DNA of 64,000 nucleotides from Candidatus Bathyarchaeota archaeon (GCA_963806535.1 CAWDYC010000005.1:128001-192000), one strand, 5' to 3'; positions 17,545 through 44,100 are shown, counted from the first letter of the stretch. The notes: generated from the sequence alone by a model not told the origin. Numbers and translations: made by a program.

Positions 17545-19049
17545 AACCACTGAAGAGGGCAAGCGGGGTTTTGCTTCATGTAACATCGCTTCCATCTGAT
17601 TTTGGCATAGGTGATTTGGGGCCAAATAGTTACCGCTTCGTAGATTTCCTCTTTAAAACCAATCAACGTTTTTGGAACATCCTTCCACTGACACCAGCTA
17701 GTACCCAATTCAACAATTCTCCATATCAGCCTACTTCAGCGTTTGCAGGAAATACTCTACTCTTGAGCCCAAAACTTCTTAGTGAAGATGGGCTGCTGAC
17801 AAAAGAAGATCTTGAAATGTTAAAGCTGCCGGAGGGTCAGGTTAATTTCAAAACCGTAACAGCCTCCAAAGCGGAAATGAAGAAGAAGGCATACTTGAAT
17901 TTTGTCCAAAACAAGACTAGCCAAAGTCGATTTAATGAAAGCAGTTTTGAAAAGTTCCTTTCGGAAAACTCTACTTGGATTAACGATTACACTCTTTTCT
18001 GCGCACTTGAAGCCGTCACAGAGAAACCCTGGTACCAATGGCCAAATCAACTGCGTGATAGAGATCCAAAAGCTCTCGCCCAAAAAGAAGCTGAACTGAA
18101 AAACAGGATTGAACAAGAAAAGTTTGCGCAATACCTTTTTTCAAAGCAATGGATCGCCTTAAAAGAATACTGCCGGGTAAGAGAAGTAGCTGTGTTTGGC
18201 GATTTGCCATTTTACATGTGCTACGATAGCGCGGATGTTTGGGTGAACCCTGAACTATTTAACTTGGACAATCAAAAACTGCCAAGGTACGTTAGCGGAG
18301 TGCCTCCGGACTACTTCAGTAAGTCAGGGCAACGATGGGGAAACCCAACATACAATTGGGGTGAACATAAAAAAACATCTTTTCAATGGTGGATAACCAG
18401 AATACAGGAGAATTTGAAGCGTTTCGAGATTTTGCGTTTTGATCATTTTAGGGGGTTCACGGCTACCTGGCAAATACCTGCATCTTCCAAAACCGCCAAA
18501 AAAGGCAGGTGGATTAAGTCGCCAACGAAGAGCTTTTTTGAAGTCTTAAAACGGTTTTTTCCAAATATGCCCTTCGTGGCTGAAGACCTCGGATTAATCA
18601 CAAACAGTGTACGGGAAAACCTAGCGCTTCTAGGGATTTCTGGCATGAAAGTCTTAGTTTTTGCCTTCAACGGCGCATCGAATAATCCTAACTTACCAGA
18701 AAATCACACGGAAAACTCTGTGATTTACACAGGAACCCACGATACCAACACGGCGAAAGGCTGGTTTATGGAGGAAGCCTCCTGCGAAGAAAAAGAGCAG
18801 TTCTTCAAATTTGTAGGCAGAAAAGTTCCTCAAAACCAGATTAGTAATGAGTTTATTAAGTTAGCTCTATCATCCAAATCTAAATTGAGCATTATCACAA
18901 TGCAGGATTTGCTCTCTTTAGGCTCAGAAGCACGAATGAACAACCCTGCGAAAAGCGCTAATAATTGGCAATGGAAACTAAAAAGTGAACAGTTAAATGG
19001 CAAGAATTTTGAAAGAATCATAGCGTTAACTGAGGCGTCAGGAAGATAA
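17541..19049 (+). CDS. malQ: 4-alpha-glucanotransferase (GH77)
   Basis: RASGVLLHVTSLP, GVPPDYFS, RFDHFRG, AEDLG and YTGTHD motifs. Confidence 0.92.
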   Translation: MKPLKRASGVLLHVTSLPSDFGIGDLGPNSYRFVDFLFKTNQRFWNILPLTPASTQFNNSPYQPTSAFAGNTLLLSPKLLSEDGLLTKEDLEMLKLPEGQVNFKTVTASKAEMKKKAYLNFVQNKTSQSRFNESSFEKFLSENSTWINDYTLFCALEAVTEKPWYQWPNQLRDRDPKALAQKEAELKNRIEQEKFAQYLFSKQWIALKEYCRVREVAVFGDLPFYMCYDSADVWVNPELFNLDNQKLPRYVSGVPPDYFSKSGQRWGNPTYNWGEHKKTSFQWWITRIQENLKRFEILRFDHFRGFTATWQIPASSKTAKKGRWIKSPTKSFFEVLKRFFPNMPFVAEDLGLITNSVRENLALLGISGMKVLVFAFNGASNNPNLPENHTENSVIYTGTHDTNTAKGWFMEEASCEEKEQFFKFVGRKVPQNQISNEFIKLALSSKSKLSIITMQDLLSLGSEARMNNPAKSANNWQWKLKSEQLNGKNFERIIALTEASGR

Positions 19050-19374
19050 ATTGTGGGTAAAAGCTCAGCTTAATTCTAGATTTTCTTTTTGCGCCACGTT
19101 GAGTAACATATAGCTGTAATTTGGTCGTTGGAGCGCTTCTCTGTTTCAGCTTTGCTATTGTTTTCTTCATGCATGAATTTTTCACATCTTGAAATGAAAT
19201 CTCGTTCAGACTCATTCGATTTAGGTTTTGGGACAGGCATCAAAAACACCACATTAAGAATTAGTTCTTACTGTCCTTACAAATTAGTTTCTGATTGATT
19301 AGAATTTGTGATTGATACCTCACAGTAACAAGGGATTATATGCTTGGCTATTGGACTAAATATAGTGATAATTC

Positions 19375-19641
19375 TTGTTTGCACTTCAAGTGATTAATCT
19401 AGTGGATCCAGGCTTTTGGTGGCTGCTTATAGTTCTACTTATAATTGCATTAATTGCAATCGTCTTTATCGGCTTTTTATTCGCTTTCCCAATTGCAGCA
19501 CTCGCAGGGATAGCGGTGTTCTTCTTAACAGGCAGCTTGGTATGGGCGGGAATAACTTTCTTAATAGTTGCCTTGATTTCTGCAGCCGTGGGCGATTTGT
19601 TGCACATGACACGGCGTCACCATCACCATCATGAAGATTAG
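19375..19641 (+). CDS. Small very hydrophobic membrane protein with C-terminal His tract
   Basis: About 3 TM segments, ending TRRHHHHHED. Confidence 0.6.
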   Translation: MFALQVINLVDPGFWWLLIVLLIIALIAIVFIGFLFAFPIAALAGIAVFFLTGSLVWAGITFLIVALISAAVGDLLHMTRRHHHHHED

Positions 19642-19657
19642 TTTTTAGAAGCTTAAT

Positions 19658-20077
19658 ATGGAGAATATCAAGATGTCAAAACTCAAATCAGTAATAGCCT
19701 TACTGGCAATCGTAATTATCATTATCACAGCTTTCTCGGTTTATGCAGGCGTAACCTACCCAAGAACAACTGCAAGCATACCAGTATCTTTTAGGGTAGG
19801 TGCTGATTCGAAGATTATAGCTTTTGACCAGCCAATCTTGGATGATAGAGTACAAATTCAAGTGGTAGTTCAAAATGGCGCAGCATTGTGGCGGGCTCAA
19901 ATTCTTAACGGCGGCCAAGTTATCTGGGAACACTCGGCAGCACAGGGTGAACAACAAAGCTACAATAGCGGCTGGATTCAAATGCCATCTGGAAACTATA
20001 ATTTCACTTTTGGAACAATAGGCATCGGGTCATTAGACGCCACCGCTTCAGTTATGTCTAAAGGCGGTTTTTGGTGA
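19658..20077 (+). CDS. Secreted/membrane-anchored hypothetical protein
   Basis: N-terminal hydrophobic helix followed by a beta-rich domain. Confidence 0.7.
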   Translation: MENIKMSKLKSVIALLAIVIIIITAFSVYAGVTYPRTTASIPVSFRVGADSKIIAFDQPILDDRVQIQVVVQNGAALWRAQILNGGQVIWEHSAAQGEQQSYNSGWIQMPSGNYNFTFGTIGIGSLDATASVMSKGGFW

Positions 20078-20152
20078 AAAAATGCGGTTTCCCAAGGGGT
20101 CCCACAGTTTTTCCCAAACCAGGAGATGCGAATCAATTCACCTTTAAAATGT

Positions 20153-20659
20153 TTAGTTCTCGTTGAGTTTTTCATTAACCTTTAAGTCAATTTTGCCGCA
20201 TTTGGGACAAAAATAAACTATTACGGGTAACGCTTCCTTCCCAAGTTTTACTGAATTATTGTCAGCAGATTTTTGATCCATTCTTTCCAATCCATCAATT
20301 CTAAACTCGGTTCGAGTTTGAGACATCTCAACATTACATAAAGAGCAACAAGGAACTATGGCGTTTTTCGTTTGGTCTTCCTTGGTTTTGTTGTCATCGA
20401 TAACTGTGCCTTCGACATCGATTTTTTCAACCTCAATTGGTGAGGAAATATTTTCCGTATTCCCTAAAAATCGGCAGGGCGTTGCACAATCTAGTACAAA
20501 CAAGCAATGATAGCAACAAGACATCTTCTCTTCATTTTTACATCGAACCTGCCTGCTTGCCTTCGCTCTCTCGCTATCAGTAACAGCTAGACATAATTTC
20601 TCACTTGTTAAATATTCACAGCAATTGGCTATGTCTGACAAATTACTTTCTTCCTGCAC
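20153..20659 (-). CDS. Cys-rich putative zinc-binding protein
   Basis: N-terminal Cys cluster (CCEYL...CCYHC...C..C) and C-terminal CSLC...CPKCG ribbon. Confidence 0.65.
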   Translation of the reverse strand: MQEESNLSDIANCCEYLTSEKLCLAVTDSERAKASRQVRCKNEEKMSCCYHCLFVLDCATPCRFLGNTENISSPIEVEKIDVEGTVIDDNKTKEDQTKNAIVPCCSLCNVEMSQTRTEFRIDGLERMDQKSADNNSVKLGKEALPVIVYFCPKCGKIDLKVNEKLNEN

Positions 20660-20854
20660 TATTCAAGACAAGGATTTCTCCTATGTGTGTTTTGGTTCAG
20701 AAACTCCGAAAAATGGTTGAGATTAAAGCACAGTGTAGCTTCTCAGGTCAGCATTCTACTCGGTGAAATAAATAAATGCTCTTCTCACGAAACAATACGG
20801 GAAATGGTGAAAATAGTGGCTTCAATGATCTTTGAACTTGTGAAAATAGAGTTG

Positions 20855-21385
20855 TTAGCGCTCGTTTGCGGTTATGAGGGTGTTGAAACTGAAATTGCTT
20901 ATGTCCAGTATGTCGTGGGACACAGTTAGGTTCAGTTGAATGGGAATCACTTGTCCTGGGCTGAGGATTTGACCTGAGTAGTTCCAGTTTAGAGAAATAT
21001 AGTTCGAGGAGGCGGATGGGGTCCAATTTGTCATTTCCAAAGACAATGAAGCCTTCGAATTCATTTCATTACTAATATAGATCATTAAGGTATTGTTTGA
21101 ACCAGCTTCTATGTTTCCCCAGTTGAGTGAGAGCGTTCTGTTGGTGCAGGCTTGATCCCAGTAAATCCCCACTCCAATGCCGTTCACGGAGCTCGCATGG
21201 GCAACGATTTTGTCCGACTCGAAGACAGTGGCGGCACAAAAAACAAAGAGAGATAATAAGCATATTACTGCTAGCATTATTTTTCTGTGAGCATGATTTC
21301 CTGTCGGAATAGTAAATGTTTGTCTTAAGTTTTTTATTCCTTTGTTGATTTTGTGGGGCAACTTCCTGAGGCTTTTATTAGACAT
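20855..21385 (-). CDS. Secreted hypothetical protein
   Basis: TM/signal segment then GIYWDQACTNRTLSLNWG Ig-like domain. Confidence 0.7.
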   Translation of the reverse strand: MSNKSLRKLPHKINKGIKNLRQTFTIPTGNHAHRKIMLAVICLLSLFVFCAATVFESDKIVAHASSVNGIGVGIYWDQACTNRTLSLNWGNIEAGSNNTLMIYISNEMNSKASLSLEMTNWTPSASSNYISLNWNYSGQILSPGQVIPIQLNLTVSHDILDISNFSFNTLITANER

Positions 21386-21696
21386 TCCAAATCCCCCAAT
21401 AGTATTATATCATAATAAACCATATAGTGATGTATAAACAAATGTGATTGTATTGACACTCCAACAGTCTATTCTGCGAAAGTTGTCTCAGAAAACCAAA
21501 AAAGAAAAAATACGAATTAAAACGTTGACCTTGTAGTTGATGTGCTGGCCATTATCTGGAATTTTCCTCTCATTAAGTGATTTTTCCTAACAATCAGTTC
21601 AACCTTTCACAGGGTTCGAAGTATATCTACACTGAGCGATTAAAAAAATCGCACATATTATTAAGTCGTTTTTATTGTAATATTTTATTGGTATTA

Positions 21697-22098
21697 ATGC
21701 AGTCTCTAACAGGCAATAAGAGTAGGCTTACGTTTTGGACTTTGATACTGATTGGAATTTTTCTTTGGCTTAGTGGGGTTCCTTTGGCAGCATATGATTA
21801 TGGCAAAACATATCCGTATCTAATTTTGGGATTTCTTTTGATTGCTCTTGGAATATTCATGGTGGCTGTCTCCGCAATTCAAAGAATTAATCAACGTGTC
21901 GCCCAAATAATTATTGGTTTGTGTGGTCAGATTCTTTTTGGATTAGTAATATTTGAGATTCCGTTACTACCTGCATTTCCCTTTTCACCCTTCAATTTTC
22001 ATACATACTCAATCATTCTAGGTGTTTTAGGGATGGCTCTTTCAATAGAAAGCATATTTACGCTCAGTAAAAATAGAGAAACTCCGCTACAAAAATAA
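21697..22098 (+). CDS. 4-TM membrane protein
   Basis: Hydrophobic ORF; likely start is ATG 21697 (MQSLTGNK). Confidence 0.65.
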   Translation: MQSLTGNKSRLTFWTLILIGIFLWLSGVPLAAYDYGKTYPYLILGFLLIALGIFMVAVSAIQRINQRVAQIIIGLCGQILFGLVIFEIPLLPAFPFSPFNFHTYSIILGVLGMALSIESIFTLSKNRETPLQK

Positions 22099-22170
22099 CT
22101 CTAATCGGGGTTTATGCATTTTCTCATAGGAAAAGATGCTGATAATAATGAAAATCTAAGTGTGCAGGCC

Positions 22171-22195
22171 TGAAGCTGGGATGGGGAATTGAGCC
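22171..22195 (-). repeat. Degenerate tRNA-Cys 3'-end copy (att scar, class I)
   Basis: TGAAGCTGGGATGGGGAATTGAGCC vs tRNA end TGGAGCTGGGGATGGGAATTGAACC. Confidence 0.7.
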
Positions 22196-22662
22196 TTCAC
22201 CAAAGAAGAGATTCACCCGCATTTTCTTTTTTTCATTTTAACCTAAAAAACTATTTGCAATGAGAAAACAAATTTGGCATATATAATTCTCTCTTACCAT
22301 TGTCTAATCCTTTTATGGCGCAACCCGCGCGATTATTTTTATTTAACAGCCTGCATTAGAGCATGTTGCCTGTGAAGATAAACACGTCAGTCGGAGAAAG
22401 GATTGGTAGTCCTATCGATGATGTCAGTTAACGAATTCTGAGGCACACGAAAACAACAAACAAAGCGGCGTTGACTGATGAGCAAGTAACAGAAAATTGA
22501 AGCCGAATGAATCAGATTCATTGTGAGAAATTCGATTAAGAATGTTGTATAAACCGGTGCTGTTGTAGATGGACAATCCTCGAATTCTCTTAATGAGTGT
22601 CTCAGAAGTGCATTCCCTGATGTGCCGTCCAAGTTAGAGTTGAAACTCTTGTGTGCGACATG

Positions 22663-22752
22663 GGAGCTGAGGATGGTTTTTTGAGTTGAGGTGCGATTCC
22701 ATTCTTCGTTTAGGTTTTTATGAAATGTCTTGCATGTGTTTACGTCTTGAAT
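22663..22752 (-). repeat. att-like repeat class II (tRNA 3' 14-mer plus ~75 bp arm)
   Basis: 56/74 identical to the repeat starting at 26528 by manual alignment. Confidence 0.75.
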
Positions 22753-22831
22753 ACTTGAATGAGAGGTTTAGTCAACACTGAAATCCTTTAACTTAACGTT
22801 TTCACATTATCCTAAAAGAGGCATAAGTTAA

Positions 22832-23605
22832 GTGGTGAGTAAAAAGAAAAAGCGCTCAAGCATCTTTTTTGTAACTCTCTGCCTTTTCGTTTTCATAGGT
22901 TGCTTTGCAACAGGAGTTTTAATGCGACAAAATACTGTCCTTTTAATAAATCACTTACCACAGACTAATCTATTAGTGCAGCCAACTAATTCACAGCCTA
23001 AGATGCAATTGGGACCAAATTTGGAGCCATTGAGTGCATTCTTCTTAGACATGAATGGTGCCGCGTCTTCATATGCGAGTTTAAGCACATCAATAACTCA
23101 CAATGGGCACGCAAGTATCCGTTTAGCTGCTGATCGTATTCGAGGAACACGGGAAGATGATGGTGCCTGGATAAATGTTCATCCTGGTGACCACATATAT
23201 GCTGGCGTTTGGGCTAAAACTGATCCGAATACGGCTAATGGTGGCAACCCAGACATTTACAGAGGCGCACGTGTTGGCATAGATTTATGCGCTCAAACTT
23301 CTGCAGGCTACGGTGTGGTTGATGGAATACCGCATGACTACACAATAATAAACGGATTACCTGTTAGTCAATGGCAGAATACCCCCGTCTCACGGTTTCA
23401 GCTTCCTTACGATAATGACTGGACGCTTATTTATTGGAACATAACAGTTCCAGACAACTATTACGATAGGTACAATCCTGGAAACGAAAATATCGCTGTA
23501 ACTCCAGTTCAAATAAATAGTTTAGTGATGTGGTTTGATGCTAGAGAATTGACTGATGGACCATACGTTTACTTCAGTGATCCTTTTTTGTACGTTAATC
23601 CATAA
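22832..23605 (+). CDS. Membrane-anchored secreted protein (carbohydrate-binding-like beta domain)
   Basis: Basic N-terminus plus TM, then a Trp/Tyr-rich beta domain. Confidence 0.7.
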   Translation: MVSKKKKRSSIFFVTLCLFVFIGCFATGVLMRQNTVLLINHLPQTNLLVQPTNSQPKMQLGPNLEPLSAFFLDMNGAASSYASLSTSITHNGHASIRLAADRIRGTREDDGAWINVHPGDHIYAGVWAKTDPNTANGGNPDIYRGARVGIDLCAQTSAGYGVVDGIPHDYTIINGLPVSQWQNTPVSRFQLPYDNDWTLIYWNITVPDNYYDRYNPGNENIAVTPVQINSLVMWFDARELTDGPYVYFSDPFLYVNP

Positions 23606-23771
23606 TGGAGAGTTGGTTTTCAGGCTAACCATGGCCTGGTAGAACCGTTGTTAACGGAAGGAGATAACATAACAATGCTTAAGTGGTCTAGCTTCTTAGG
23701 ATTTATTGCTGTTAGAGGCATACAAACCATAATTTTTTGTGATCATCAGAGTCAACGTAGAACTTGAAGAA

Positions 23772-23794
23772 TAGAGCTGAGGAGAATTGAACCC
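23772..23794 (-). repeat. Degenerate tRNA-Cys 3'-end copy (att scar, class I)
   Basis: TAGAGCTGAGGA---GAATTGAACCC. Confidence 0.65.
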
Positions 23795-24156
23795 TCAACT
23801 ATTTGGAGAGGTCACGCCAAGATCCTTTCTTTTTTGCTTCCAGTATTCTTTATGGTTTGATTGATTTTGCTTTTGCCTTAAATCTTAATTCGCATTTTTT
23901 ATTACTCAATTCTGAGTAATTTTGGGGGATACCCTTTTTGGAAAAAGACTTTGTGTTGGTTGTTTTTAGTCAGTGGCCTTTTTTGCGGCTTATTTGGTTT
24001 GCGGATTTTGGGGTTTGCAGGTTTTCTGCGTAACGAATTAGTTGATTTGAAGCTAACTCTTCAATTTACGCCGCATTGTTTTTTGGGAGAGGCTTAAATT
24101 GCAGTTAGAAACGCTTAAGCGTGGTGAAGAATGGTTAGAGTTCTTTGCAATGTGAA

Positions 24157-24230
24157 GGAACTAGACGTGAATTATGCGCTTATTTGCGCTAATTATGCGT
24201 GAACTTGCGTGGATTTGACGCTTGTTTGCA
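24157..24230. repeat. Element-end motif followed by helically phased TGCG repeats
   Basis: GGAACTAGACGTGAATTATG matches GGAACTAGACTCGAACTATG at 30099; TGCG at 24175, 24185, 24196 and 24206. Confidence 0.5.
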
Positions 24231-24280
24231 GGCGACCAAGACTTGGCGCTTTTTGACATTATAGCCAAGCAGCTTCTGCA

Positions 24281-24943
24281 TTATTCTGTTACAATATGAG
24301 CGATTAGGCGAAGTTCGGCTTTTCTGGAATGAGTTGCCAACGTAGATTTGGTTAGGTTGAGCTTTTTTGCCAACTGTCTAGAGCTTATTCTTCTGGGCGA
24401 GTCATAGTACCCGAGCCTGTAAGCAGCAATTAAGACTTCCCTTTGTTTTTCTGTTAAAATGTTAAGAGGTGAATCCAGCGAAAACCGTGCGTCGGTCAAC
24501 GAGACAATCTTGTAGCGCATTTTCAGTTTCTGGAAATCCTCAAAAACCTTGCCCATTTGGCTTGCGCTTCCTATAAAAGTTAGCCTAACTTGCCTTTCGC
24601 GAATTTCGCGGGAAACAACATATGCGATATCGGCTCCTGGCTCTTTGGAGATAGTCTTTTGCGGTTTGGGGAGTTTCTGTTTAACGAAGACCACGTATGC
24701 TCCTGTTTTTTCTCTTTCGATGAGCTTCACTTCAAAAACATTGTCGCTAATTAGCCTCACAAAATCTTCAATGTTGGGTACTTCATCCTCAAGCTCTATT
24801 CTCCCTATTGCCGTCATCTCTTCTTGGTCCTGTCTGAGGACTTGCAGGATTTTCAACATTTTCACTTTTTGCAAGCGTGACACATCTACACTCTTATTTT
24901 TTCTCAATTCGTTAATGGAGAACTCTACGATAAGCCTACGCAT
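24281..24943 (-). CDS. Transcriptional regulator with C-terminal HTH-10 (bacterio-opsin-activator-type) domain
   Basis: LTEKQREVLIAAYRLGYYDSPRRISSRQLAKKLNLTKSTLATHSRKAE. Confidence 0.88.
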   Translation of the reverse strand: MRRLIVEFSINELRKNKSVDVSRLQKVKMLKILQVLRQDQEEMTAIGRIELEDEVPNIEDFVRLISDNVFEVKLIEREKTGAYVVFVKQKLPKPQKTISKEPGADIAYVVSREIRERQVRLTFIGSASQMGKVFEDFQKLKMRYKIVSLTDARFSLDSPLNILTEKQREVLIAAYRLGYYDSPRRISSRQLAKKLNLTKSTLATHSRKAELRLIAHIVTE

Positions 24944-24993
24944 GATATCCACATCATATACCAAATCATATATATTTTTTGTATTAGGCGGAC

Positions 24994-26127
24994 ATGTCCG
25001 CTAAAAAACTAATCCGATTCAACGCATTCTTAATCATCAAGGAGCCAACAAAAATTTCTGAGCGAATTGACGTACATCACCACATTGTTCCAAAAGAATA
25101 CGTTGACGCCCTATCCAAGAAAGGAGTAAAAAAAGGTCTTGGAGTTCAACTTCCAGGCTGGAACGCAGACAAAACCCTCGAGATTATGGACAAAAACGGA
25201 ATTTCCGCATCCATACTTTCAATTTCTGCACCAGGAGTTTACTTCAAAGACAAAGACCCTTCGCTGGAACTTGCCAGAAACCTATCAAGACAGACAAACG
25301 AAATATGCGCCAAATTGATCAGTGATCATCCTAAACGGTTCGGCGCTTTCGCCACTTTGCCCCTTCCTGATATCAACGCAGCTTTGGAAGAACTAAGGTA
25401 CGCTTATGAAAGGCTGAAACTTGACGGAGTGGTACTGCTATCGAACTACGATGGTTACTATCTGGGCGATTCAAGGTTTGACAAGCTGTTTATGGAGCTA
25501 AATCGCCGAAAAGCGGTCGTGTTCATTCACCCAGCTACGCCGCCAGGCATTGAAGAATCGCATCTTGGTCTCCCAGAATCGATGGTCGACGTGTGCTTCG
25601 ACACGACAAGAACCGCTTTTTCCCTAGTCGTGAATGGCATTACTAAGAAATGTCCTGATGTGCGCTTTATCCTAGCTCATGCAGGAGGCGCGGTTCCTTA
25701 CATGGCCGCAAGAGTAGGCATTACGTCAGCTCTCCTTGCAGAAAAAGGCGGCGTAGGACCTTTCATAGCAGATGGGCTTGGAAAGATTGCGTCCGTTTTC
25801 CCGAAATTGAAAGAATCCATGCCCGACCTTCTTAAATACTACTTAAGGTTCAAAGAAAACGTATTACCCGAAGGTCCAGATTTTTACCTGAAGAAGTTCT
25901 ATTACGATACTGCTCTTTCAGCTTCCCCTCACACTTTTGCTTCCCTTCAGACACTTGTCGACAGTTCAAAAATCTTGTTCGGAACCGACTACATTTTTGC
26001 AACACAAGATGCTGTACCCATAACAATTAAGGGCATAGAGGAATACTCAGGCTTCAACGAAAAAGACGTAAGAGCAATTGAGAAAGAAAACTCTTTAGGT
26101 CTGTTTCCGAGGTTCAAAGGCAGTTAA
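24994..26127 (+). CDS. Amidohydrolase_2 family (ACMSD / aromatic acid decarboxylase-like)
   Basis: RIDVHHH, FGAFATLP, VFIHP, FDTTR, LAHAGG, YYDTA and LFGTDY motifs. Confidence 0.85.
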   Translation: MSAKKLIRFNAFLIIKEPTKISERIDVHHHIVPKEYVDALSKKGVKKGLGVQLPGWNADKTLEIMDKNGISASILSISAPGVYFKDKDPSLELARNLSRQTNEICAKLISDHPKRFGAFATLPLPDINAALEELRYAYERLKLDGVVLLSNYDGYYLGDSRFDKLFMELNRRKAVVFIHPATPPGIEESHLGLPESMVDVCFDTTRTAFSLVVNGITKKCPDVRFILAHAGGAVPYMAARVGITSALLAEKGGVGPFIADGLGKIASVFPKLKESMPDLLKYYLRFKENVLPEGPDFYLKKFYYDTALSASPHTFASLQTLVDSSKILFGTDYIFATQDAVPITIKGIEEYSGFNEKDVRAIEKENSLGLFPRFKGS

Positions 26128-26527
26128 CATATTTGAAAGAATCCTGAGTGATTCTTAACTTTCTTTTTGATGTAAGTAATGTTTGGAGAACAGATTTTGG
26201 TTTTGGGTTGTGGTGATGCCGCTGGGATTTGTACCTCGGATAAGCCGGAGATTACCCGTATTTTCCTTTTTCTATTATTTGAGGTTTGAGCGTTAACTTT
26301 CATCTACACATAATGCAAAATATTAGCAATAAGCGCATAAGAAACACAATAATGTACACGCAACCTGGTCGATTTCCAAGAAGACGGTCATGTCGCAAGA
26401 ATTGCCCCTCTGAAAATGAGACATGCCAATTACTTGAAGCCAACTTCGAGTTTGTGTGCAACTTCGGCTATAAAAGTTTTCAGAAAACGCAAGTAGCATT
26501 TTTTCAAAGTATATGAGTTTATGCTAA

Positions 26528-26616
26528 AGAGCGGGGGATGGACTTTTGAGTTGAAGTACGATTCCCTTCCACGTTTAGGCTTCAAAGAAGTGGTTTGTAT
26601 GCTCATTACCTTGAAT
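26528..26616 (-). repeat. att-like repeat class II
   Basis: AGAGCGGGGGATGGACTTTTGAGTTGAAGTACGATTCC..., homologous to the 22663 repeat. Confidence 0.75.
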
Positions 26617-26883
26617 TCATCCAGTTGGAAAACTGGCTTATTAGAATGAGCCTTTTAAGCTGAGCGAAGTATTGTGTGCCTTTTTGCACGCAAAATACAC
26701 ATTATCTATAATCTTTTCCCTTTTTTCTTCACAACGGATTTCGTTAATAGTTGTTGGAAAAATTATCGAAACGAATCTTTTGTTAGCTCTGAATATGTCT
26801 CGCATTTTGAGTTTTCCAACAACTTTAATAGCTCAAACGATGTGCCTAAAAATACATATCGCTAATTGATTTGAGGTAATTAA

Positions 26884-27576
26884 ATGATATACCTAGGAAT
26901 AGATGACACCGACATTTTGGGTTCTAGAGGCACAGGCAGGCTCGCCAGAAACATCGCCGCCGAGCTCTCAAAGAAATACCAAATATTCGGTGTCACACGC
27001 CACCAACTTCTAGTACACCCAGACATCCCATTCACTTCACACAATAGCTGCGCTGTAGTTCATACTGAAACATCACCAACAGACATGGAAGAAATATTTT
27101 GCACCACAAGAAAGCTAATGCTGGAAGATTTCATTGAAGGAAGCGACCCAGGATTAGCTATAGCAGATAGTAATCAGGTGACGCCAGGAACAGTGGCATT
27201 TGGTCTAGATGCTAAAACCATCGTCGTCACTCAGGAACGAGCCAGAGAAGTGGCAAAAAATAGCAAAATCCGTTTTGAAGGTTTAGGCGGAACCGAAGGA
27301 GGTATAATAGGTGCAATCGCAGGCGTTGGTTTAGCTTCTTTGAAAAATGACGGCAGGTTCCTTCTGAAAGGCAAAAATAGAGAGCTCTCAGGAGTTCGGT
27401 CAATTTCAGAAATCATTAACTCAGGCATAGACGAAGTGCTTACGCTTCAAGGAGAGACGATTAATGAAGGAAAAGTGCAGATTCCAAAAAACGCCACCCC
27501 TTCTTTCATTCAAGGAAAAGCGGTGCTTTTCGTGGAACAAAACGAGGATTATTGGATTGCACTTAAGAGGGCCTAA
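26884..27576 (+). CDS. DDTD-motif protein (TiaS N-terminal / DUF1743-related fold), function unknown
   Basis: IGIDDTD...RGTGRLAR, RHQL..HPDIPFTSHNS, EGSDPG and GIIGAIAG motifs; lacks the TiaS OB and Zn-ribbon domains. Confidence 0.7.
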   Translation: MIYLGIDDTDILGSRGTGRLARNIAAELSKKYQIFGVTRHQLLVHPDIPFTSHNSCAVVHTETSPTDMEEIFCTTRKLMLEDFIEGSDPGLAIADSNQVTPGTVAFGLDAKTIVVTQERAREVAKNSKIRFEGLGGTEGGIIGAIAGVGLASLKNDGRFLLKGKNRELSGVRSISEIINSGIDEVLTLQGETINEGKVQIPKNATPSFIQGKAVLFVEQNEDYWIALKRA

Positions 27577-27579
27577 AGA

Positions 27580-28358
27580 TTGCAGTTTAAGTATAAGCTG
27601 GCGGCTGCTTTTGCGATTTTTGGTTTGCTGATTTTAATAGTCTTTGCTGTTCAATGGGTTTACTTAAGCCAGCCAGCAAACATCCTCGGAGGAAATTATT
27701 ACCTGGATCAAACGTTTTCTCAAGCAAGTTTTCTTTATGGTCCTCAAGCATGGATTCCCTATGCGTCTAAATTGCCAGTTATGCCAGGGGTGGACACTAA
27801 CAGTAACGGAAACTTCTATGTTATGTTTGTCGATTTGAATGCCACATCTAATTTGAACGCTACGTTTCCCTGTGTAAGGGTTGATTACTCATTTAGTGGT
27901 TTACATGGGACAGCAGCTTTCCATGTTTACGGATATATCAAAGATAATGGGGGATTTTCATGGACGAATCGTGTGGATGGGCTTGGGGCAAGCGGTTTCT
28001 ATGTAACAGCTCCAGCATTGGATCGTCCAGCATTTCGGCAAATGCCCAGATGATGTCTGACATCGACCACATATACGTTAAGGTTTCAAACAAAGAAGGC
28101 GCTGCATTCAATGATTTTGGAAATAACACTTATTTTATGAAATTTGACAAGGATGGTGGCGGCTTAAATTCTCTCCACCTTACAACTGACCCAAGAAATC
28201 CCAGCGGCAACGTTACCACAACAAGCAATACGAGCGGTACTTTTTATGTGGATTTTACGGGTGGCCGAGTTCAGGATGATTTAGTTCTGTTAGTTGCCGT
28301 TAATGGTACTATAGATCACAATTTCAAATTAAATCTAAAGTCGAGTGTGCCAGGGTGA
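27580..28358 (+). CDS. Membrane-anchored surface protein (frameshift near 28015)
   Basis: Two overlapping ORFs that join into one gene; C-terminal part GGGLNSLHLTTDP...SGTFYVDFTGGRVQDDLVLLVAVNGTI. Confidence 0.6.
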
Positions 28359-28367
28359 GATGAGGCT

Positions 28368-28928
28368 ATGAAGCGTCAGAAATATTTTTTGGTCTACGAG
28401 GTCTCTTTCTTGTCGCTTATGGCTGCCCTTGTTTATGTTTTCAAGGCTTTCTTCAAAACTCCGATCGGTTTGCCCGCCCATACTGCGATTGTGTGGGTAA
28501 TCCCTTTCATAATAGGAATTGGTTTAACAAAGAAGTTTGGTGCAGGCATCTACATAGGCGTGCTTTCAGGCTTGCTTCTAGGTGTGCTGGGAATGGCAGA
28601 TAAAGGCTTTTTCGAAGTATTTGAGTATGCAGCGATGGGAATCACCATGGACATTTTAGCTTTGGTGTTTAGAGGTCATTTGGGAAATATTTTGGTCGGC
28701 TGCGTTCTCGGTGCTTTCGGAAGTTTTGATAAAACAATGGTCAATTATTACATAACGAGTCTAATAGGCCAGAATGCACACATACTTCTAGTAGGAATCG
28801 GCGTTGCGGGAACTTCAAGTTTAATTTTTGGAGGAGCAGGCGGCATAATTTCAGCGATAGTTGTCAACCGTACGCAGCATTTGCATTTTCCAAACCGAAC
28901 TAAGAAAAAAGAAAAGATTAAGACTTAA
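28368..28928 (+). CDS. ECF-transporter S-component-like membrane protein
   Basis: 5-6 TM segments; LMAALVYV..F.KTPIGLPAHTAI; FGAG..IG pattern. Confidence 0.55.
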   Translation: MKRQKYFLVYEVSFLSLMAALVYVFKAFFKTPIGLPAHTAIVWVIPFIIGIGLTKKFGAGIYIGVLSGLLLGVLGMADKGFFEVFEYAAMGITMDILALVFRGHLGNILVGCVLGAFGSFDKTMVNYYITSLIGQNAHILLVGIGVAGTSSLIFGGAGGIISAIVVNRTQHLHFPNRTKKKEKIKT

Positions 28929-28946
28929 TTCAAACCTAAACCAGAT

Positions 28947-29777
28947 TTAGGTTTGACTTGATTTTCTTTTGTAAGTCATTATTGCTATTGTTGCGGCCAT
29001 CAGTACGATTATGGCAATAGCTGCAGCTGGAAATTCTGGAACAGTGGGCGAGGGTGATGGAGATGTTAAGGGAGTTGGGGTAGGTGTAGGCGATGTAGTT
29101 GGTGTTGGAGTTGGAGAAGCGGTTGGAGTAGGTGTTGGTGTCGGAGTTGGCGTGGGGGTGGCTGTTGGAGTCGGGGTAGGAGATGGGGCTGTGTCAGTTA
29201 CATTCACTTGTGTTATGCTTCTTCCGCCCGAACCATCCATAAGTAAACCTTCCTGACCAACAATTACTAGTCTGGGAGCTGGAAGAGAGCTGCTGGGCAG
29301 AGTAGTGCCGTTAACTTGGTAAGCCAAAATTAAGGTGACAGGCTGAACTTGATTCTGCACTGTTCCAGTTAGGTTATTGTACGTTGTGTATTGTGCGTTG
29401 AAGTTGGTGCCACTGTTTACCATATCATAAGTAAAATTGTTAGTGCCTTGACCCGTAACTGTCACATTGCAGGTTGAGGTGATTCCGCCCACTTGATTAC
29501 AAAGATAAAGCAGCGATACACCCACCCATAAACCACTATTGATGACATGTTGATTAGGTTGGTAGAATCCACCATACATGGTGACGTTTGGCATAGCTTC
29601 TAATTGAGTTAATGTATAGTTTATGCTTGTTCCAGTGTATCCAGTTACCTGTATAGTTGCTTCTGTCTGTGCTTTCGCTTGAGGCGAACTGCCTAAAGCA
29701 GCTGTGACGGTTAGCGTAATTATGAGTAACAAGAGAAAAGCTGTATGAGTGGGCTTGTTCGTGAGTTTAGTTAACAT
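28947..29777 (-). CDS. Surface protein with molybdopterin-oxidoreductase-like (sulfite oxidase fold-like) domain, Pro/Thr linker and PEF-CTERM
   Basis: [28 protein letters not shown]...PRLVI; ends TVPEFP + TM + KRK. Confidence 0.7.
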
Positions 29778-30116
29778 TTATGGTTTTTCTCCTTTTGATT
29801 TGGAAGTTGCCGAGATGTACATAAAAACATTTCGGGGCAAATCTATAGATGTTTTTTTTGACTTTCGAGATCAAAGAAGACTATGGACACTATAGAAAGT
29901 TACGTCGGAGAAAGCTATGAGGAATCCCATTTTTGAAGCTGTTAAAGAGCGGATTACTGAGCCTGTAGGGAACCGAACCTTAAACATCCATGTCAGTAAT
30001 TGTACTGGGGATGGGCTTTTACAAAGATGTTGTCAATTCCATAGATGACGATTCTTTTCGGGTTCGTACTTGTACCCTTAAGAAAAATAGATATTTGCGG
30101 AACTAGACTCGAACTA

Positions 30117-30142
30117 TGGAGCTGGGGATGGGAATTGAACCC
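30117..30142 (-). repeat. Perfect 26-bp duplication of the tRNA-Cys 3' end (att site)
   Basis: TGGAGCTGGGGATGGGAATTGAACCC is identical to 31216..31241. Confidence 0.9.
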
Positions 30143-30346
30143 TAACACGCTGGCGACATCGCCAATTCTTAATATTCTATGCAGCCTTTTTCTCTTTTTT
30201 TGAATCTCTTCCGTATAATGGCGTATCCCAGCTAAGTTGTGCTATCGCTTTAGGTGGCAATCGGTGGCTGACTTGGTTCTTTCTGTATTCCCTTTTTTTA
30301 CAAAAATTCTTAAGAAACGCCCGCGCATAAAAGGTGTGGTATTCGA

Positions 30347-30763
30347 ATGGTTGAGTATTACCAATTACCTTTGCCGTCCAGAATTCCAAAATCGATAATT
30401 ATATTAGTGCTTTTACTGGTCATCGCAGCAGTAGTGGCTATTCTGCTTTCTCCTTTTCTACCACATGGTCCCGCTGGAAGCCTATTTGTAGTTTTAACTT
30501 TGGGGATTTTAACCCTAATTTCCTATATCATCGCCCGCAGTACAGGGCTCAAAGACCAACGCTCTCCAAGACAAAAACGGGTAAATACTCTGCTATGCTC
30601 TGGTTTTGCGAGCTTTTTTAGCTATGCCGCTTTAGCAGTCGCGTTGATGGGTCACCCTATGCATTTTCCGTCTAATCTGCCGCTATTATTAGCCGTAGTC
30701 TTAGCTGCTGCTTCAACCGCGTTGATTGCAGACAGTGCTTCAAAGAAGATTGGCTTGTACTAA
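30347..30763 (+). CDS. 4-TM membrane protein
   Basis: Hydrophobic ORF lying between two att copies. Confidence 0.55.
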   Translation: MVEYYQLPLPSRIPKSIIILVLLLVIAAVVAILLSPFLPHGPAGSLFVVLTLGILTLISYIIARSTGLKDQRSPRQKRVNTLLCSGFASFFSYAALAVALMGHPMHFPSNLPLLLAVVLAAASTALIADSASKKIGLY

Positions 30764-31215
30764 CTGACGCATAGTCAAGCCTAAATGTTGCAATAGCAAA
30801 CCAAAGCATACGATAATGGAGCCCCACTATAGGGGGTAATTAAAACCGCGGCTGGAATCGTTATAGCGGGTTTAAGCTAGATTTGTATATTATCAGCAGC
30901 ATACGGACATGGCGCTAACTCAGTCATCAAGAATACCGGGATTTGAAAACCGTACGTTCCACCAAGGGGATTTACTCTTTCTCCATTTAAAAAATATTTA
31001 AGGAATACCGAGTGACTAAAATGCTGTTCTGTTTCACCCCTTTACCCAAAAGTTGGGAGTGCGGTCTTCTAAGTTAACACATAAACGCGGTAGACGAAGT
31101 ACTAAATCAGAAGAGGTAGGCAGTCAATGACAGACGGCAGCGAATTTGGGAAGAACCAAACCTTCTTAATAGAAGGCTCAAAGTAGAAGCCGCCAGAGGA
31201 TGGGAATGCATACGT

Positions 31216-31291
31216 TGGAGCTGGGGATGGGAATTGAACCCATATATAACAGCTCTGCAGGCTGTCGCCTGAACGATTCGGCCACCCCAGC
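31216..31291 (-). tRNA. tRNA-Cys (GCA), CCA encoded
   Basis: GCTGGGG/CCCCAGC acceptor stem, ACAGC-CTGCAGA-GCTGT anticodon arm, ATGGG-TTCAATT-CCCAT T arm, ending TCCA. Confidence 0.93.
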
Positions 31292-31374
31292 ATCTTGAAT
31301 CTAGGGCTAGAGCACACATAAAAATATTGTTGGATATAAAACATATTATTTCCTGCATGTTTAATGCTTGGTTG

Positions 31375-31743
31375 CTAAATTATTTTTTTGAAGGCTAAAC
31401 CTGAAAAGAAAGCAACACTTTTATCTCTGTTCTTCACGGTTACATTGTATAGACCCATGGTTTTTCCATCCGAAACTCGTGTTGCCTCAGCCGTCAATAG
31501 ATCTCCTTCAACAGAGGGCTTAAGAAAATTTATGCTCACCTGAACTGCAACCGCTACGTTATCGCCAAAGTTGCATGCATGCGCAAAAGCGTAATCCGCC
31601 AACGAGAAGATTGCGCCTCCATGCGTGAAGCCCAACGCATTTGTATGTTTCTTCTCAACTTTCATTGATACTTTGGCATAGCCGTCTTTTGCTTCGAGAA
31701 CTTTGATGCCTAATGCTTCGGCGAAATAGTCTGTTCCTTTCAT
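31375..31743 (-). CDS. paaI: PaaI-family hotdog thioesterase
   Basis: HTNALGFTHGGAIFSLAD. Confidence 0.85.
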   Translation of the reverse strand: MKGTDYFAEALGIKVLEAKDGYAKVSMKVEKKHTNALGFTHGGAIFSLADYAFAHACNFGDNVAVAVQVSINFLKPSVEGDLLTAEATRVSDGKTMGLYNVTVKNRDKSVAFFSGLAFKKII

Positions 31744-32810
31744 TTTGTTTTAGCTCCTTTAGGTTTCTCCTCTGATAATAGGTAATTGTAGAATTTGCGG
31801 AACAGCGATGTTAATCCTTTTGGAGAGAAAATAACGATTACTAGTAGGATTACTCCTATGATTAGGTATGTTAATGGGGGTCCAACGTAGCCGACTTTGG
31901 GGAAGAGTGGTCCAATGTGGTGCTTAAGGATTGGGTGACGCTTTGGGTGGTTAATATTTGTCCGATGGATGTGAGGAAAATTGCGCCGATGATTGGTCCG
32001 CTTACGGTTCCTAAGCCACCGATAACCGTCATTATGAGAGGCAAAAACGAGTTGGCAGGCGAGAAAATTGAATTATCGATAAACTGTATGAAATAAACGT
32101 ATAATCCTCCTGCGATTCCAGCAAAGAATGTGCTGATGACAAAGGCTATCAGCTTGTATTTTGCAGTGTTTATTCCAATCATTCGTGCCTCTGCTTCATT
32201 TCCATGTATAGCCCTAAAAGCAAGCCCCATCCGCGACTTCATAATCAAATACATAATCGTAATGGAAACTGCCGCAAAAGATATCACTAAAATGTAAAAT
32301 GGGTACCCTCCAGACACAAATGTTGGCGTTCGAAAACCGTTTATTCCATTTGTGAAAGAATCAAACTGGCTTGACAAAGTAAAAGCTATCACTGAAAAAC
32401 CAAAAGTTACCATAGCCAAATACCATGCTTTTAATCGTACACAAGCCAAACCAATCAGCAAGCCGATTCCTGCAGAAATCAAGCCTCCGATAAGAAGAAC
32501 TGAAACCTGAATCAGCAAAGATAAAGCTCCAGATTGGCATTGCGTTAGCACCGAATGCTCCAATTATGGCATTGGAGATTCTGCTTCCAATTATTGCTGA
32601 TGAGAAGCCGCCGATGCCTAAGAAAGCAGCGTGTCCCAGTGAACCTTGCCCTGAATTTGCTAGAAAATTCCAGCTTGCCGCATAAATTGAAAAGATAAAA
32701 ATTAACGTAAAAACGAACAGGAAGAAGGTGTCAGTTATGAATATTGGAATTAGCGCTAAAACTGCGAAACTTACAACTAAAAATAGAAAGCTTCTTGAAC
32801 GCAGGAACAT
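31740..32810 (-). CDS. livM: Branched-chain amino acid-type ABC permease (frameshifted)
   Basis: SWNFL..SGQGSLGHAAFLGIG, SRMGLAFRAI and IGGLGT motifs. Confidence 0.8.
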
Positions 32811-32836
32811 GGTGAGTTTCTGTTTTAGTCGGCATG

Positions 32837-33718
32837 TTATTCTCCTTTTTCCCCAAATAATCCGTTAGGTCTGATAATGAGGACGACTATTAGCAGTGCA
32901 AAAGCAACGGCGCTTGACCAAATTCCTCCCAGAAACAGCGTTGCCAATTGCTCAGTGATGCCGTAGAGCAATCCGCCTACAATGGCGCCTCGTATGCTTC
33001 CTAACCCACCAAGAATGATTATGGCGAATGCTATGATTGTTGGCATTGCTCCAGTTTGGGAGTTAAAAGAGAAAATGATGCCGTATAGTCCACCGGCTAC
33101 AGCGGCTAATGCTGAGCCTAAAGCAAAGGTAATCATGTAAATTCTTTCAACGTTTATTCCCATGAGCATGGCTGTTCTGTTTATTTGGCTGGTAGCACGC
33201 ATTGCTAAGCCAATTTTTGTTTTCCACAGCAGCAAACCAAAACCGACTAGAACAGCAACTACGACGAAAACAGCGACAATGCGGTCATATGTTATGGATA
33301 TGCTTGGAAAACTCAAACTCATGCCGTAAAAGGGGCTTTTAATCTGTTGAGACTGGTCACCCCAAATAAGTAGGGCAGCATTTTCAAAAATGTAAATCAA
33401 GCCGAGGCTAACAAAAATCTCGTTGAGTTTTTCTGTTCCCATGAACCCTTCGAAAAGTGAACCGTTCAATAACTACGCCTAATCCAGCAACTATCGCCAT
33501 TGAGACAAGAATTGCTACATAAGCGTTTAATCCCTAAAGCAACTGAGATGGTCCAGGTAAGATAATGCGCCTATCATTAGAAATTGTCCGTGAGCAAAAT
33601 TGACAAGTTTCATAACGCCGAAAATAATGTTTAATCCAGAAGCAAGCAACATGTAGATGCAGCCGATTGCAACGCCCCAAATTAATGTTAAAACTATTGT
33701 TCCAGCAGTTATGTCCAT
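32837..33718 (-). CDS. livH: Branched-chain amino acid-type ABC permease (frameshift near 33530)
   Basis: GLNIIFGVMKLVNFAHG, KTKIGLAMRA, IILGGLGS and RPNGLFG motifs. Confidence 0.85.
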
Positions 33719-33845
33719 GATTCAGTTGTTCCCTCAGTCATTAATCGGTAAACTCTTGGCTTTCTTATTCATCAGCATAACTATTTAAAATGTTTTTTAA
33801 TTTCAAGAAAATAAAAGAAGAAAAATTTTTGGAAGGAAGCTTAGT

Positions 33846-35225
33846 TTAGCTTCCAGGTTGATAGCCTGTTGGCAATCTAAAGTCTGCTTGTTTGAAGTTG
33901 CTTATGCCTGGTACTGATGGCTGGCCAAATTATTTGTGATTCCAGTTGTGTTGGTTTGGCTGTTCCATTTGAGTTGTTCCATGAATGTTACTGGGCCAAT
34001 TTCGTGGTAGTTAACGCCTGTGCTGAATTGTATTTTGCCTGTATGTGGTCATGATGAGTCTTTGGTTCATGTTGGTGTTTTCTATTGCTTGTCGTACTGC
34101 TGCTTTGTCGATTGTTCCAGCATTTTCAATTGCGTTCTTAGCGATGTAGAATGCGTCATATGTGTCAACTCCCATCATTCCTGGCGCTACATGGTAAGTT
34201 TGGTTGAATTTCTGAGAGTATGTCTGTACTGCGGATGAGTATGAAGGTACTTGGAATGGGTCCATCTTTGACTCCAAAAGTTGTCCGTCACCAACGGCTC
34301 CTAATAGATTGTAGAATACTGGGTCTTGGTTGTTTTCAACTGCAATGTAAACGGTCTTTAATCCTACGTCGTTCCATCCCTGCTGGATTACCAGTGGTGT
34401 TATGTCTGGGTTGTCAGCGACAAATACTGCGTCTGGGTTTGCTTGTTTGATTACTGTTAGGTCAGTTTGGAAGGTATTGGATGTAGTTGGGTGTTTTCTG
34501 TCTGCTACGATGTTAATTGGTAGGCTTTCGTTCTGAATCCAGTATTTGGCTGCTTGTTCAACTGCGTTTCCGAAAGAGTCATCACGGTAGTATAGTGCAA
34601 GGCTGAAGTTTCGGTCTGGTGCTACCATCGGCTTCATTTCTTGAGCTAAGAAGTCAACGACTGTTTTTGCGTAGTCATAGGTTGTTGTGCAGTAGTGGAA
34701 CATGTAGCTCATTCCTTCTGCATCGGTGATGCTGTAGGTTCCTGTTGCTCCAACGCCGCCATAGTTGCCTTGTGGTCCTCTTCTGGTAACAAGTTGGTTT
34801 GATGCTCCAGTGATTATGAAGGGAACTTTGTTTTCGATGGCTACTACTTCGTCAGCAAGGGTTGCTGCGCTTCCGTATCCGCCGATGAGCATGTCTACTT
34901 TGTCTGATTGAACTGCTTGTGTTACTGCTGTTACGGCGTCGGCTGGAACTGTGTCTTTTCCGGTGTCAACGGTTACTAAAGTTATGTTGACTTTGGTGTT
35001 CCAACCAGAAACGGAAATTCCGCCTGCATCGTTGATTTCGTCAACTGCCATTTGTGCTGCTTTCTGCATGTCTTGTCCAATTGAGGTAGACATTGGAGCA
35101 ACTAAGCCTATCTTTATGTTTCGTGCGTCAGCTGATGGTGCTGGTTTTGTTGTTAATTCTAAAGCTGCAACTGCTGAAACTGCAATTATTACAACAACTA
35201 TTATAGCTAGTATTTTCTTTTGCAA
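33846..35225 (-). CDS. livK: ABC transporter substrate-binding protein, LivK/LivJ family (C-terminus frameshifted)
   Basis: IKIGLVAP, AVDEINDAGG, LIGGYGS and YDAFY motifs. Confidence 0.8.
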
Positions 35226-40864: not shown

Positions 40865-41080
40865 ACTTGATTATTCTCCGATTAGCAAGGATTAATCTCC
40901 GTAGAAATATAAAGTTTGGTAAAAATCATGTTTCATCGGGGTAGAAAAAATAATCTCAATCGTAACTTTGGTTGAAGAGAGCGAAGACAGTAATTGCTTG
41001 GAGCTAGAGCACTCCCTATTATCGAGAACAGAATATTATTCTCTTTTTTAAAACATCAATAATGGGTCAATTTTGAGAGT

Positions 41081-41599: not shown

Positions 41600-41655
41600 C
41601 TGATTTTACCTATTATTCTTTGATTTGAACAAGAATATTGAGTTTTTGTGATTTC

Positions 41656-42045: not shown

Positions 42046-42246
42046 AAAATCTCACCTATTCTATGATTCTCTATAAGAGATTGAGTATATAAAATATTCA
42101 CTGTGTTAAATTGACAAAGGAAAAGCTACATGCAGTATCGCTAGATACACATCCGAAACCATACAAATCTGTCGATAACAAAATTGAATCTAAAGAAAAA
42201 AAATAATGAAAACGATTTGAAAAAACAAGAAATTTGACGAAGAAGA

Positions 42247-42432: not shown

Positions 42433-42520
42433 TTTTTGCAAATTTGAATTTGTTGGGCTAATCATTATCTTTTCACTTTTTTAGGATTAACCTTCTAAAG
42501 AAAAGGAAGCCTATTAAATA

Positions 42521-42540
42521 TTGTGACATTTATGTCACAA
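42521..42540. promoter_or_regulatory. Perfect palindrome immediately upstream of the lysW TATA-like box
   Basis: TTGTGACAT-TT-ATGTCACAA; TATTTAAT on the minus strand at 42513..42520. Confidence 0.55.
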
Positions 42541-44083: not shown

Positions 44084-44100
44084 GAATAAACCAGAATTAA

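Follow-up and report, generated by a model that had tools for sequence, protein, structure and literature searches.

The tRNA-Cys gene of Candidatus Bathyarchaeota archaeon GCA_963806535.1 borders a tandem array of small gene units that are separated by copies of its own 3' end. Most probably, at a probability of about 0.8, the array arose by serial integration of elements at the tRNA-Cys gene and subsequent erosion, and represents a known kind of island rather than a new integron-like system. The analyzed stretch comprised 64,000 nucleotides (CAWDYC010000005.1:128001-192000), here referred to as the window. The junctions between the units, element remnants at the junctions, an empty integration site and integrases at the same site in relatives were all observed. 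The coordinates of the features are listed in Table 1.

The source genome (here named G000) is a 2.95-Mb assembly of 12 contigs, labelled C with a number, and the array is located on contig C5. Source names of integrase relatives assign G000 to the Bathyarchaeia. Relatives from the same Bathyarchaeia genus are named G001, G002 and so on. In total, 40 relatives were searched by DNA match, 19 loci were fetched and the tRNA-Cys gene was located in 18 of them.

ARAGORN and Rfam confirmed the tRNA-Cys gene on the minus strand of the window, as described in an earlier note on this DNA. The last 26 bases of the gene (31216-31241), consisting of the CCA end, the 3' strand of the acceptor and most of the T arm, are here named core O, and degenerate copies O*. 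A perfect second copy was present at 30117-30142. With up to three mismatches allowed, just these two copies were found in the assembly, and the repeat at 30117 is indeed the sole perfect one. The 26-mer was then used as query for a gapped scan of both strands of the whole G000 genome (threshold score at least 11, maximum 26), which resulted in 55 matches, many of them inside other tRNAs. Six matches, all on the plus strand, were located within the 12.3 kb from 19000 to 31300 (31216, 30117, 23774, 22174, 30005 and 22663), compared to approximately 0.1 expected from the density of the 49 matches outside this region. The decayed copies in the same orientation that had been noticed earlier are thus real.

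Decayed cores were assigned to 30005, 26526, 23773, 22661 and 22171, on the same strand as the perfect copy. The core at 26526 scored below 11 and was recognized by a repeat family: a 73-90-nt repeat pairs it with 22661, and its junction belongs to a family of 16 aligned copies across the genus. As in a tandem array, the direct repeats of the tRNA-Cys 3' end delimit units and all follow the orientation of the tRNA. The GGATGGGAAT echo at 31198, noted before, is too short to count on its own, but it lies inside an arm of unit U1 that is conserved in G045. Rfam searches from 19000 to 35000 with E values up to 1 yielded only the tRNA and two insignificant snoRNA matches, and therefore the junction repeats represent no known RNA family.

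To the right of the tRNA gene, where a thioesterase and a liv ABC transporter are encoded, the DNA match to at least nine relatives began no more than a few bases from the 3' end of the tRNA. The left side was not conserved among the 40 relatives searched, and the tRNA-Cys gene therefore marks a break in synteny. Integrases were found at exactly this site. A family of 417-418-aa tyrosine integrases (PF00589 plus an N-terminal zinc ribbon), here named alpha, was present at the tRNA-Cys gene or at a core copy in 7 of the 18 relatives. It was intact in G008 and G005, with the end of the gene 25-40 nt from the tRNA-Cys gene, and was represented by truncated C-terminal pieces in G022, G002, G015, G003 and G011. 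A different integrase of 443 aa was located 0.5 kb downstream of the tRNA-Cys gene in G006. Extra core copies downstream of the tRNA-Cys gene were present in 5 of the 18 relatives.

The array of G000 itself was described as integrase-free, which holds for an intact gene but not for remnants. A C-terminal remnant of alpha at 26304-26486 comprised 62 residues matching positions 354-415 of 417, including the region of the catalytic tyrosine (tblastn E values of 3e-6, 4e-6 and 4e-8 to G008, G005 and G002, respectively). It adjoins the core at 26526, as expected for an integrase next to its attachment (att) site. The W arm (26473-26541) continues this remnant and shows 76-79% identity to the flank next to the tRNA in G003, G004 and G019; it is therefore regarded as the 3'-terminal part of the integrase gene.

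The V arm precedes 22661 and, in a weaker form, 22171. Its homologue in G002 is the flank next to the tRNA, where an open reading frame (ORF) starts with an ATG in the T arm of the tRNA, runs into a fragment with 31% identity to positions 119-240 of alpha and then stops; it is a pseudogene. In SSV-type elements the att site is located inside the integrase frame, and the V-arm family is a candidate for this type. We read the V arm as the probable start of a second integrase type and the G002 fragment as its putative core-binding domain. Only about 22 codons with similarity to the integrase start remain in the V arm of G000, which makes this remnant weak evidence. Integrase pseudogene remnants, which the earlier note had named beforehand as speaking against its integron-like interpretation, are thus found at junctions.

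Unit U1, next to the tRNA gene, is flanked by the perfect 26-bp direct repeats and has retained both attL and attR. It showed no similarity to integrases and no PHROG match, and genes for integration or transfer are lacking. The 105 bases that immediately follow the intact tRNA-Cys gene in G016 were 88% identical to 30013-30116 (the Z flank), and the corresponding 80 bases in G010 were 75% identical. Since this homology continues through the core in both relatives, 30143-31215 and one core were inserted into the tail of the tRNA in the G000 lineage. The break falls exactly at the core; this demonstration of an unoccupied site applies to U1, and the older units lie outside it. Together with the intact integrases at the site in relatives, the empty sites bear out the earlier view that the repeats are junctions of serial insertion by tyrosine integrases.

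A second copy of U1 was present in G045 (C2:424028-425181), with 93% identity over 736 nt and 87% over 287 nt. The homology extends from the left core to a core running into the Y arm of an adjoining element, and both arms of U1 are conserved up to the cores. No tRNA-Cys gene is nearby, that of G045 being located on contig C11. Syntenic core DNA of G000 and G045 is only 78-83% identical. Because the copy shares the cores and exceeds this identity, U1 appears to have passed from one lineage to another as a piece with att cores at both ends. It resembles a cassette of non-autonomous type that hitch-hikes, similar to a cis-mobilizable element (CIME). The proposal of discrete cassettes without integrase is therefore partly supported, for at least one unit, U1, which occurs with the same att cores in G045.

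In four public read runs (at most 0.08 of sampled words) short pieces of U1 with 92-100% identity were found. Two contigs from these runs began exactly at 30143, and one loose end joined the core to a Y arm. Small repeat-bounded units without integrase were also found at the tRNA-Cys gene of G015 (1.0 kb) and at tRNA-Arg(TCT) of G000 (1.04 kb, 45-nt repeat). In addition, U1 contains a conserved non-coding motif of approximately 80 nt (31037-31114) with the hairpin CCCAAAAGTTGGG followed by ACACATAAACG, for which no Rfam match was obtained. Copies of this motif with 81-85% identity were present in G000 itself (C4:260046-260123 and C7:383099-383149) as well as in G004:C27, G013:C61 and G045.

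The units are bordered by conserved element ends that differ from junction to junction. The arm following the perfect core, here named beta P arm, was found in seven copies: in the window at 30117, at C9:168138 of the same genome, in G005:C24, G008:C5 and G045:C2, and twice in G014. Weaker versions followed the junctions at 22171, 23773 and 26211. The related flanks described earlier were thereby confirmed, the motif before 22171 and 22663 being the V arm and the T-rich motif after 22171 and 23772 recurring after 26211 and 30117.

The P arm at 30143-30205 contains a perfect palindrome, TTGGCGA-TG-TCGCCAA, which was kept in six aligned copies and resembles a binding site for a dimeric DNA-binding protein. 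RNAalifold gave no covariation support for these six copies (covariation term +1.09; one pair with a compensatory change). The P arm is therefore probably protein-binding DNA and not RNA, and a tRNA-like RNA in the P arm, considered as a candidate, was dropped on the same result.

The Y arm, about 110 to 125 nt in length, was approximately 80% conserved over 16 aligned copies of the genus. A short core always precedes it, and its left flanks vary between W, X, V and others. Tandem integration predicts variable left flanks, and we therefore interpret this pattern as the end of an older element, the core and the start of a newer one. In this sense, the segment 26526-26651 is best read as the junction of an older and a newer element. 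The V arm also adjoins the tRNA-Cys gene in G002 and is located inside the array of G016. Matches to the X arm with 81-92% identity were found in G016, G023, G002, G001 and G019; it leads directly into a Y arm in G016, G002:C1 and G019:C26, and adjoins the tRNA-Cys gene in G045. The arms belong to at least two element families, and the claim of a single family of minimal cassettes is not supported.

Distal junctions of the array were common to G016, G009 and G020, and the proximal units are lineage-specific to G000. The small remnant U6 (22173-22582) was 84-88% identical in G009, G016 and G020:C56, the G016 version being split by 2.2 kb. The V-core-Y junction at 22583-22755 was 83% identical in G016, and the P arm at 22197-22233 was 80% identical to the distal end of the G002 element at tRNA-Cys. 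In G009 only about 65 nt separate a conserved Cys-rich gene from the remnant of O, where G000 carries U7. The variable region therefore reaches further to the left than the span of 22150-31291 proposed before, to approximately 20698. Within that span a further junction (26211-26236) had been missed. The Cys-rich gene also matches in relatives and sits to the left of the array. The cargo ORFs were without a match in the 18 relatives' arrays with the exception of the integrase remnant and a PT-rich surface protein, for which one match (37%) was found in G021.

Based on these data we infer the following order of events, including the deletions and the mode of U1 movement. The tRNA-Cys 3' end would be a hotspot at which tyrosine-integrase elements of this Bathyarchaeia genus integrate. 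Recombination of the tRNA-like core of an element with the tail of the tRNA would rebuild the tRNA and leave a second core at the far end of the element. Newer elements would take the rebuilt site and displace older ones outward, and deletions would remove the greater part of the inside of the older ones together with the integrase gene. G000 would now retain a 10.5-kb stack (approximately 20.7-31.2 kb) of seven or so remnants between decaying cores, bordered by the beta P arm and the Y, W, V and X arms. U1 probably arrived via an integrase encoded elsewhere, for example by a neighboring element that has since been excised.

Several observations weigh against this explanation. Integrase remnants were recognizable at two junctions only and no trace was found for U1, U2, U4, U5 and U7, whose autonomous origin is therefore presumed. 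The PHROGs search revealed no viral or plasmid hallmark gene in the cargo. The Z segment, which spans 90 bp from one core to the next, is too small for an element, and no att copy was detected at the left end of U7. A tRNA-Pro fragment in a tRNA-Cys array is unexpected under simple serial integration; the sequence at 26211-26236 matches tRNA-Pro(GGG) at C11:225404 in 23 of 26 bases and is not a copy of tRNA-Cys. In the four read runs mentioned above, which contain only small shares of the stretch, no excised or circular form was seen and no contig bridged an empty site or a circle junction; this speaks neither for nor against excision. A match of the Z flank to the G006-type integrase was rejected as a remnant, since the tblastn match was merely a translated overlap with the tRNA.

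Mobile integrons consist of the integrase IntI, the attI site and cassettes with attC, an imperfect inverted repeat that folds. The cassettes are mostly promoterless single ORFs in one orientation and share a common promoter. As in an integron, small gene units without relationship to each other form a one-sided series at tRNA-Cys that a tyrosine recombinase has assembled at a single site, and the earlier note had suggested a functional integron with the tRNA as attI. However, the analogy fails on every defining feature tested. No integrase gene is adjacent and only the 62-aa remnant of a phage-type integrase is present in the array; attC-type folded sites are absent and the junctions consist of direct cores derived from the tRNA, with arms specific to each element; and the units contain 0-5 ORFs on both strands, apparently each with its own upstream region. 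A related explanation would see the array not as debris but as an active platform, at which a recombinase encoded elsewhere captures cassettes singly at tRNA-Cys. In its favor are U1, a complete unit with both arms, whose site is empty in G016 and G010 and whose copy in G045 has the same cores at another locus and exceeds the identity of the core DNA, and also the small units at tRNA-Cys of G015 and tRNA-Arg(TCT) of G000. Eight matches to PF00589 were found in G000, none of them on contig C5, and five apparently intact tyrosine recombinases are encoded away from the array. However, the best of these are only 26-28% identical to alpha, and the copy with 39% identity (C3:472426-473631) is interrupted by stops. 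No intact integrase of the cognate alpha family was found in the G000 genome. Remnants of alpha were located by tRNA-Ser(CGA) on C3 and, as a short fragment, by tRNA-Ser(GGA) on C5, with a further short fragment at C1:171-443. Considering in addition the integrase remnants at the junctions, the heterogeneous arms and the ordinary integrase-bearing elements that occupy the site in relatives, we regard such a platform as unlikely.

Recombination between att-bearing arrays at different tRNAs could also have shuffled blocks into the locus without serial insertion in situ. The tRNA-Pro fragment, orphan cores of the Cys type in G000 (C4:3707 and 4884; C9:168138) and G045:C2, the position of U2 next to tRNA-Val in G001 and the break of genus synteny at the tRNA-Cys 3' end would be in line with this, and frequent large chromosomal inversions have been described for Thermococcales together with a model (PMC5495485, in outline). 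Still, it leaves the perfect repeat, the clean empty site of U1 and the single orientation of the cores unexplained, and as the sole origin of the array it is very improbable. It would rather supplement serial integration than replace it, and for the tRNA-Pro fragment, the Z segment, the left end of U7 and the orphan cores there is a hint of such recombination. Least credible of all is the view that only the repeat at 30117 is meaningful, the decayed copies having arisen by chance or as relics of a duplication of the tRNA gene. The decayed cores are short and score only 11-13 of 26, but there are four extra matches on the same strand compared to about 0.1 expected, each core borders on an arm for which conservation was seen in other genomes, and the 5' part of the tRNA is included in none of them.

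The process seems to be one already known from streptococcal accretion, tycheposon islands and archaeal tyrosine-recombinase arrays. Accretion of ICEs (integrative and conjugative elements), IMEs (integrative and mobilizable elements) and CIMEs has been described, e.g. for ICESt1/ICESt3 of Streptococcus thermophilus (PMC5704250). As outlined there, these elements integrate site-specifically into the 3' end of the gene they target, in many cases a tRNA gene; the resident decays to a unit with attL and attR but without integrase, and the next element enters the rebuilt site, leading to tandem arrays. The array at tRNA-Cys is alike in these respects, and U1 fits the definition of a CIME as given in this outline. 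The differences are the archaeal host, the lack of visible conjugation genes, the unit size of 0.1-3.5 kb and the number of seven or so layers; cis-mobilization is here a prediction only.

In the tycheposon-built islands of Prochlorococcus (bioRxiv 10.1101/2020.12.28.424599) newer arrivals displace older ones inward, and fragmented integrases, scattered partial tRNAs and variable cargo are similar features according to the summary of that work. However, integrase family and host domain differ, and no replication module (primase/helicase) was found in the array. For Thaumarchaeota, elements with tyrosine recombinases were outlined that target tRNA genes, re-use one att site and form arrays (PMC6563490). 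In that outline the elements are defined by their integrase, which nearly all units studied here have lost. Archaeal tyrosine recombinases are also the subject of a review (PMC8371274). Genomic islands at the ssrA gene of Dehalococcoides, as summarized in PMC3146451, represent a bacterial system. In the limited set of titles and abstracts searched no comparable study of mobile elements in Bathyarchaeia was found.

Table 1. Features of the tRNA-Cys array in window coordinates
Feature	Position	Strand	Evidence or remarks
tRNA-Cys(GCA)	31216-31291	-	ARAGORN; Rfam tRNA, 61.9 bits
U1, without integrase, 1073 bp, both element arms	30143-31215	+	138-aa membrane-protein ORF 30347-30763
Perfect distal O (30117-30142) and beta P arm	30117-30205	+	Two palindromes and T run
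Z flank	30013-30116		Homologue directly downstream of intact tRNA-Cys in G016 and G010
X arm and degenerate core CTGGGGATGGG (30005-30015)	29968-30020	+	Core score 11
U2 cargo, five-gene cluster	26812-29856		ORF calls, weak family matches
Degenerate core O* (26526-26541) and Y arm	26526-26651	+	Pairs with 22664-22736
C-terminal remnant of alpha integrase (26304-26486) and W arm	26304-26525	+	tblastn, blastp
tRNA-Pro(GGG) 3'-end fragment (26211-26236) and P-arm-like T-rich motif (26250-26272)	26211-26272	+	Motif family D3
U4	23796-26210		HTH_10 regulator 24281-24964 (-), Amidohydro_2 enzyme 24994-26127 (+); Pfam
Degenerate O with 3-nt deletion, then P-arm-like motif	23773-23795	+	Score 13
U5, 257-aa secreted protein (22832-23605)	22756-23772	+	ORF call
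V arm (22583-22660), degenerate core (22661-22676) and Y arm (22677-22755)	22583-22755	+	
Degenerate O (22171-22196), P arm (22197-22233) and U6 mini-remnant	22171-22582	+	Core score 12
U7, two genes (20855-21385, -; 21577-22098, +), ending in a second V-like arm	20698-22170		

The older units differ in their cargo. Of the five genes of U2, one encodes a protein resembling TiaS/marker-11, two encode small proteins, one a membrane protein of ECF-S-like type and one a secreted PT-rich protein. The names TiaS-like and ECF-like, the latter of which had been used before, are based on matches below the threshold. The HTH_10 and Amidohydro_2 assignments of U4, in contrast, are solid (Pfam E values of 1e-18 and 4e-24, respectively). 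The U2 block was present in three other contexts, namely G001 (84% identity, 140 nt downstream of tRNA-Val), G020:C56 and G023:C2. No direct repeat of tRNA-Val was found within 8.7 kb of the G001 homologue, and U2 is not demonstrably bounded by att sites there. A homologue of the HTH_10 regulator (58% aa identity) was located 290 nt from an alpha-like integrase in G020:C26, and in G004:C55 a homologue was found just downstream of a tRNA-Pro. Paralogues of the U5 protein (42-50%) were found elsewhere in G000 and in 9 of 60 members of the genus. Searches of the cargo ORFs against PHROGs and NCBIfam revealed no hallmark of mobile elements. A stretch of about 450 nt at 23787-24239 contains no ORF of at least 60 aa; it shows 73-77% identity with two G016 loci (C7:89606-90155 and C4:294487-294934), the latter approximately 470 nt upstream of a tRNA-Ala.

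Cores of the Cys type were also found clustered at a distance from the tRNA-Cys gene of G000, at C4:3704-4900, C9:168138-168284 and C4:367-372 kb. Among the orphan cores, the copy at C9:168138 is followed by a beta P arm. The orphan array on contig C2 of G045, which holds the copy of U1, resembles these clusters. In G016, internal fragments of tRNA-Cys with 95-96% identity were located distant from the gene (C6:343100-359747), corresponding to positions 15-59 and 28-64 of the 76-nt query in window plus-strand orientation. These may represent att sites of elements with a longer homology to the tRNA. G014 carried core copies, and no intact tRNA-Cys was found there by blastn-short on the locus or when the 76-nt tRNA was searched against the genome at the DNA level.

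At many tRNAs of G000 direct repeats of the tRNA 3' end were present at distances of 0.15-21 kb. These included a perfect 45-nt repeat at tRNA-Arg(TCT) on C4 (1.04 kb away), a perfect 50-nt repeat at tRNA-Thr(TGT) on C5 (154 bp), repeats of 42 nt at 9 kb and 23 nt at 10.9 kb from tRNA-Val(TAC) on C3, and a 24-nt repeat at 21 kb from tRNA-Ser(CGA) on C3, together with a broken integrase. In G020:C56 (4390-6046) ARAGORN called a tRNA-Gly(GCC) with an "intron" of 1562 nt, which is more likely an intact tRNA and a distal copy of its 3' end around a 1.5-kb unit.

Two further observations concern the window to the right of the tRNA gene. The permease genes of the branched-chain amino-acid ABC transporter (31871-33469) are represented by three overlapping or adjacent ORFs (31871-32563, 32361-32810 and 32837-33469), which suggests a frameshift or an assembly error. 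A region of 3.6 kb (40927-44540) with a low GC content of 0.35-0.38 interrupts a syntenic block; G001 is contiguous across it, the block in G045 lacks it, and 555 nt of it (42670-43224) are 92% identical to a sequence elsewhere in G045. It is probably another insertion.

The locus documents, junction by junction, the building and the erosion of a hypervariable island in Bathyarchaeia, an abundant and uncultured lineage of sediments. It accounts for a synteny breakpoint throughout the genus as well as for fragments of tRNA ends that can be mistaken for tRNA genes. U1 is a concrete candidate for the mobilization of non-autonomous cassettes by archaeal integrases. Whether Bathyarchaeia generally contain miniature cassettes of the U1 type, with two arms, a tRNA core, one or a few cargo genes and no integrase, that spread from species to species and from one core-bearing locus to another via integrases borrowed from full-size elements is a tentative idea to which we give less than even odds. 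If true, tRNA-anchored arrays would in practice be platforms for the capture of genes, comparable to cassette capture but archaeal and based on tRNAs.

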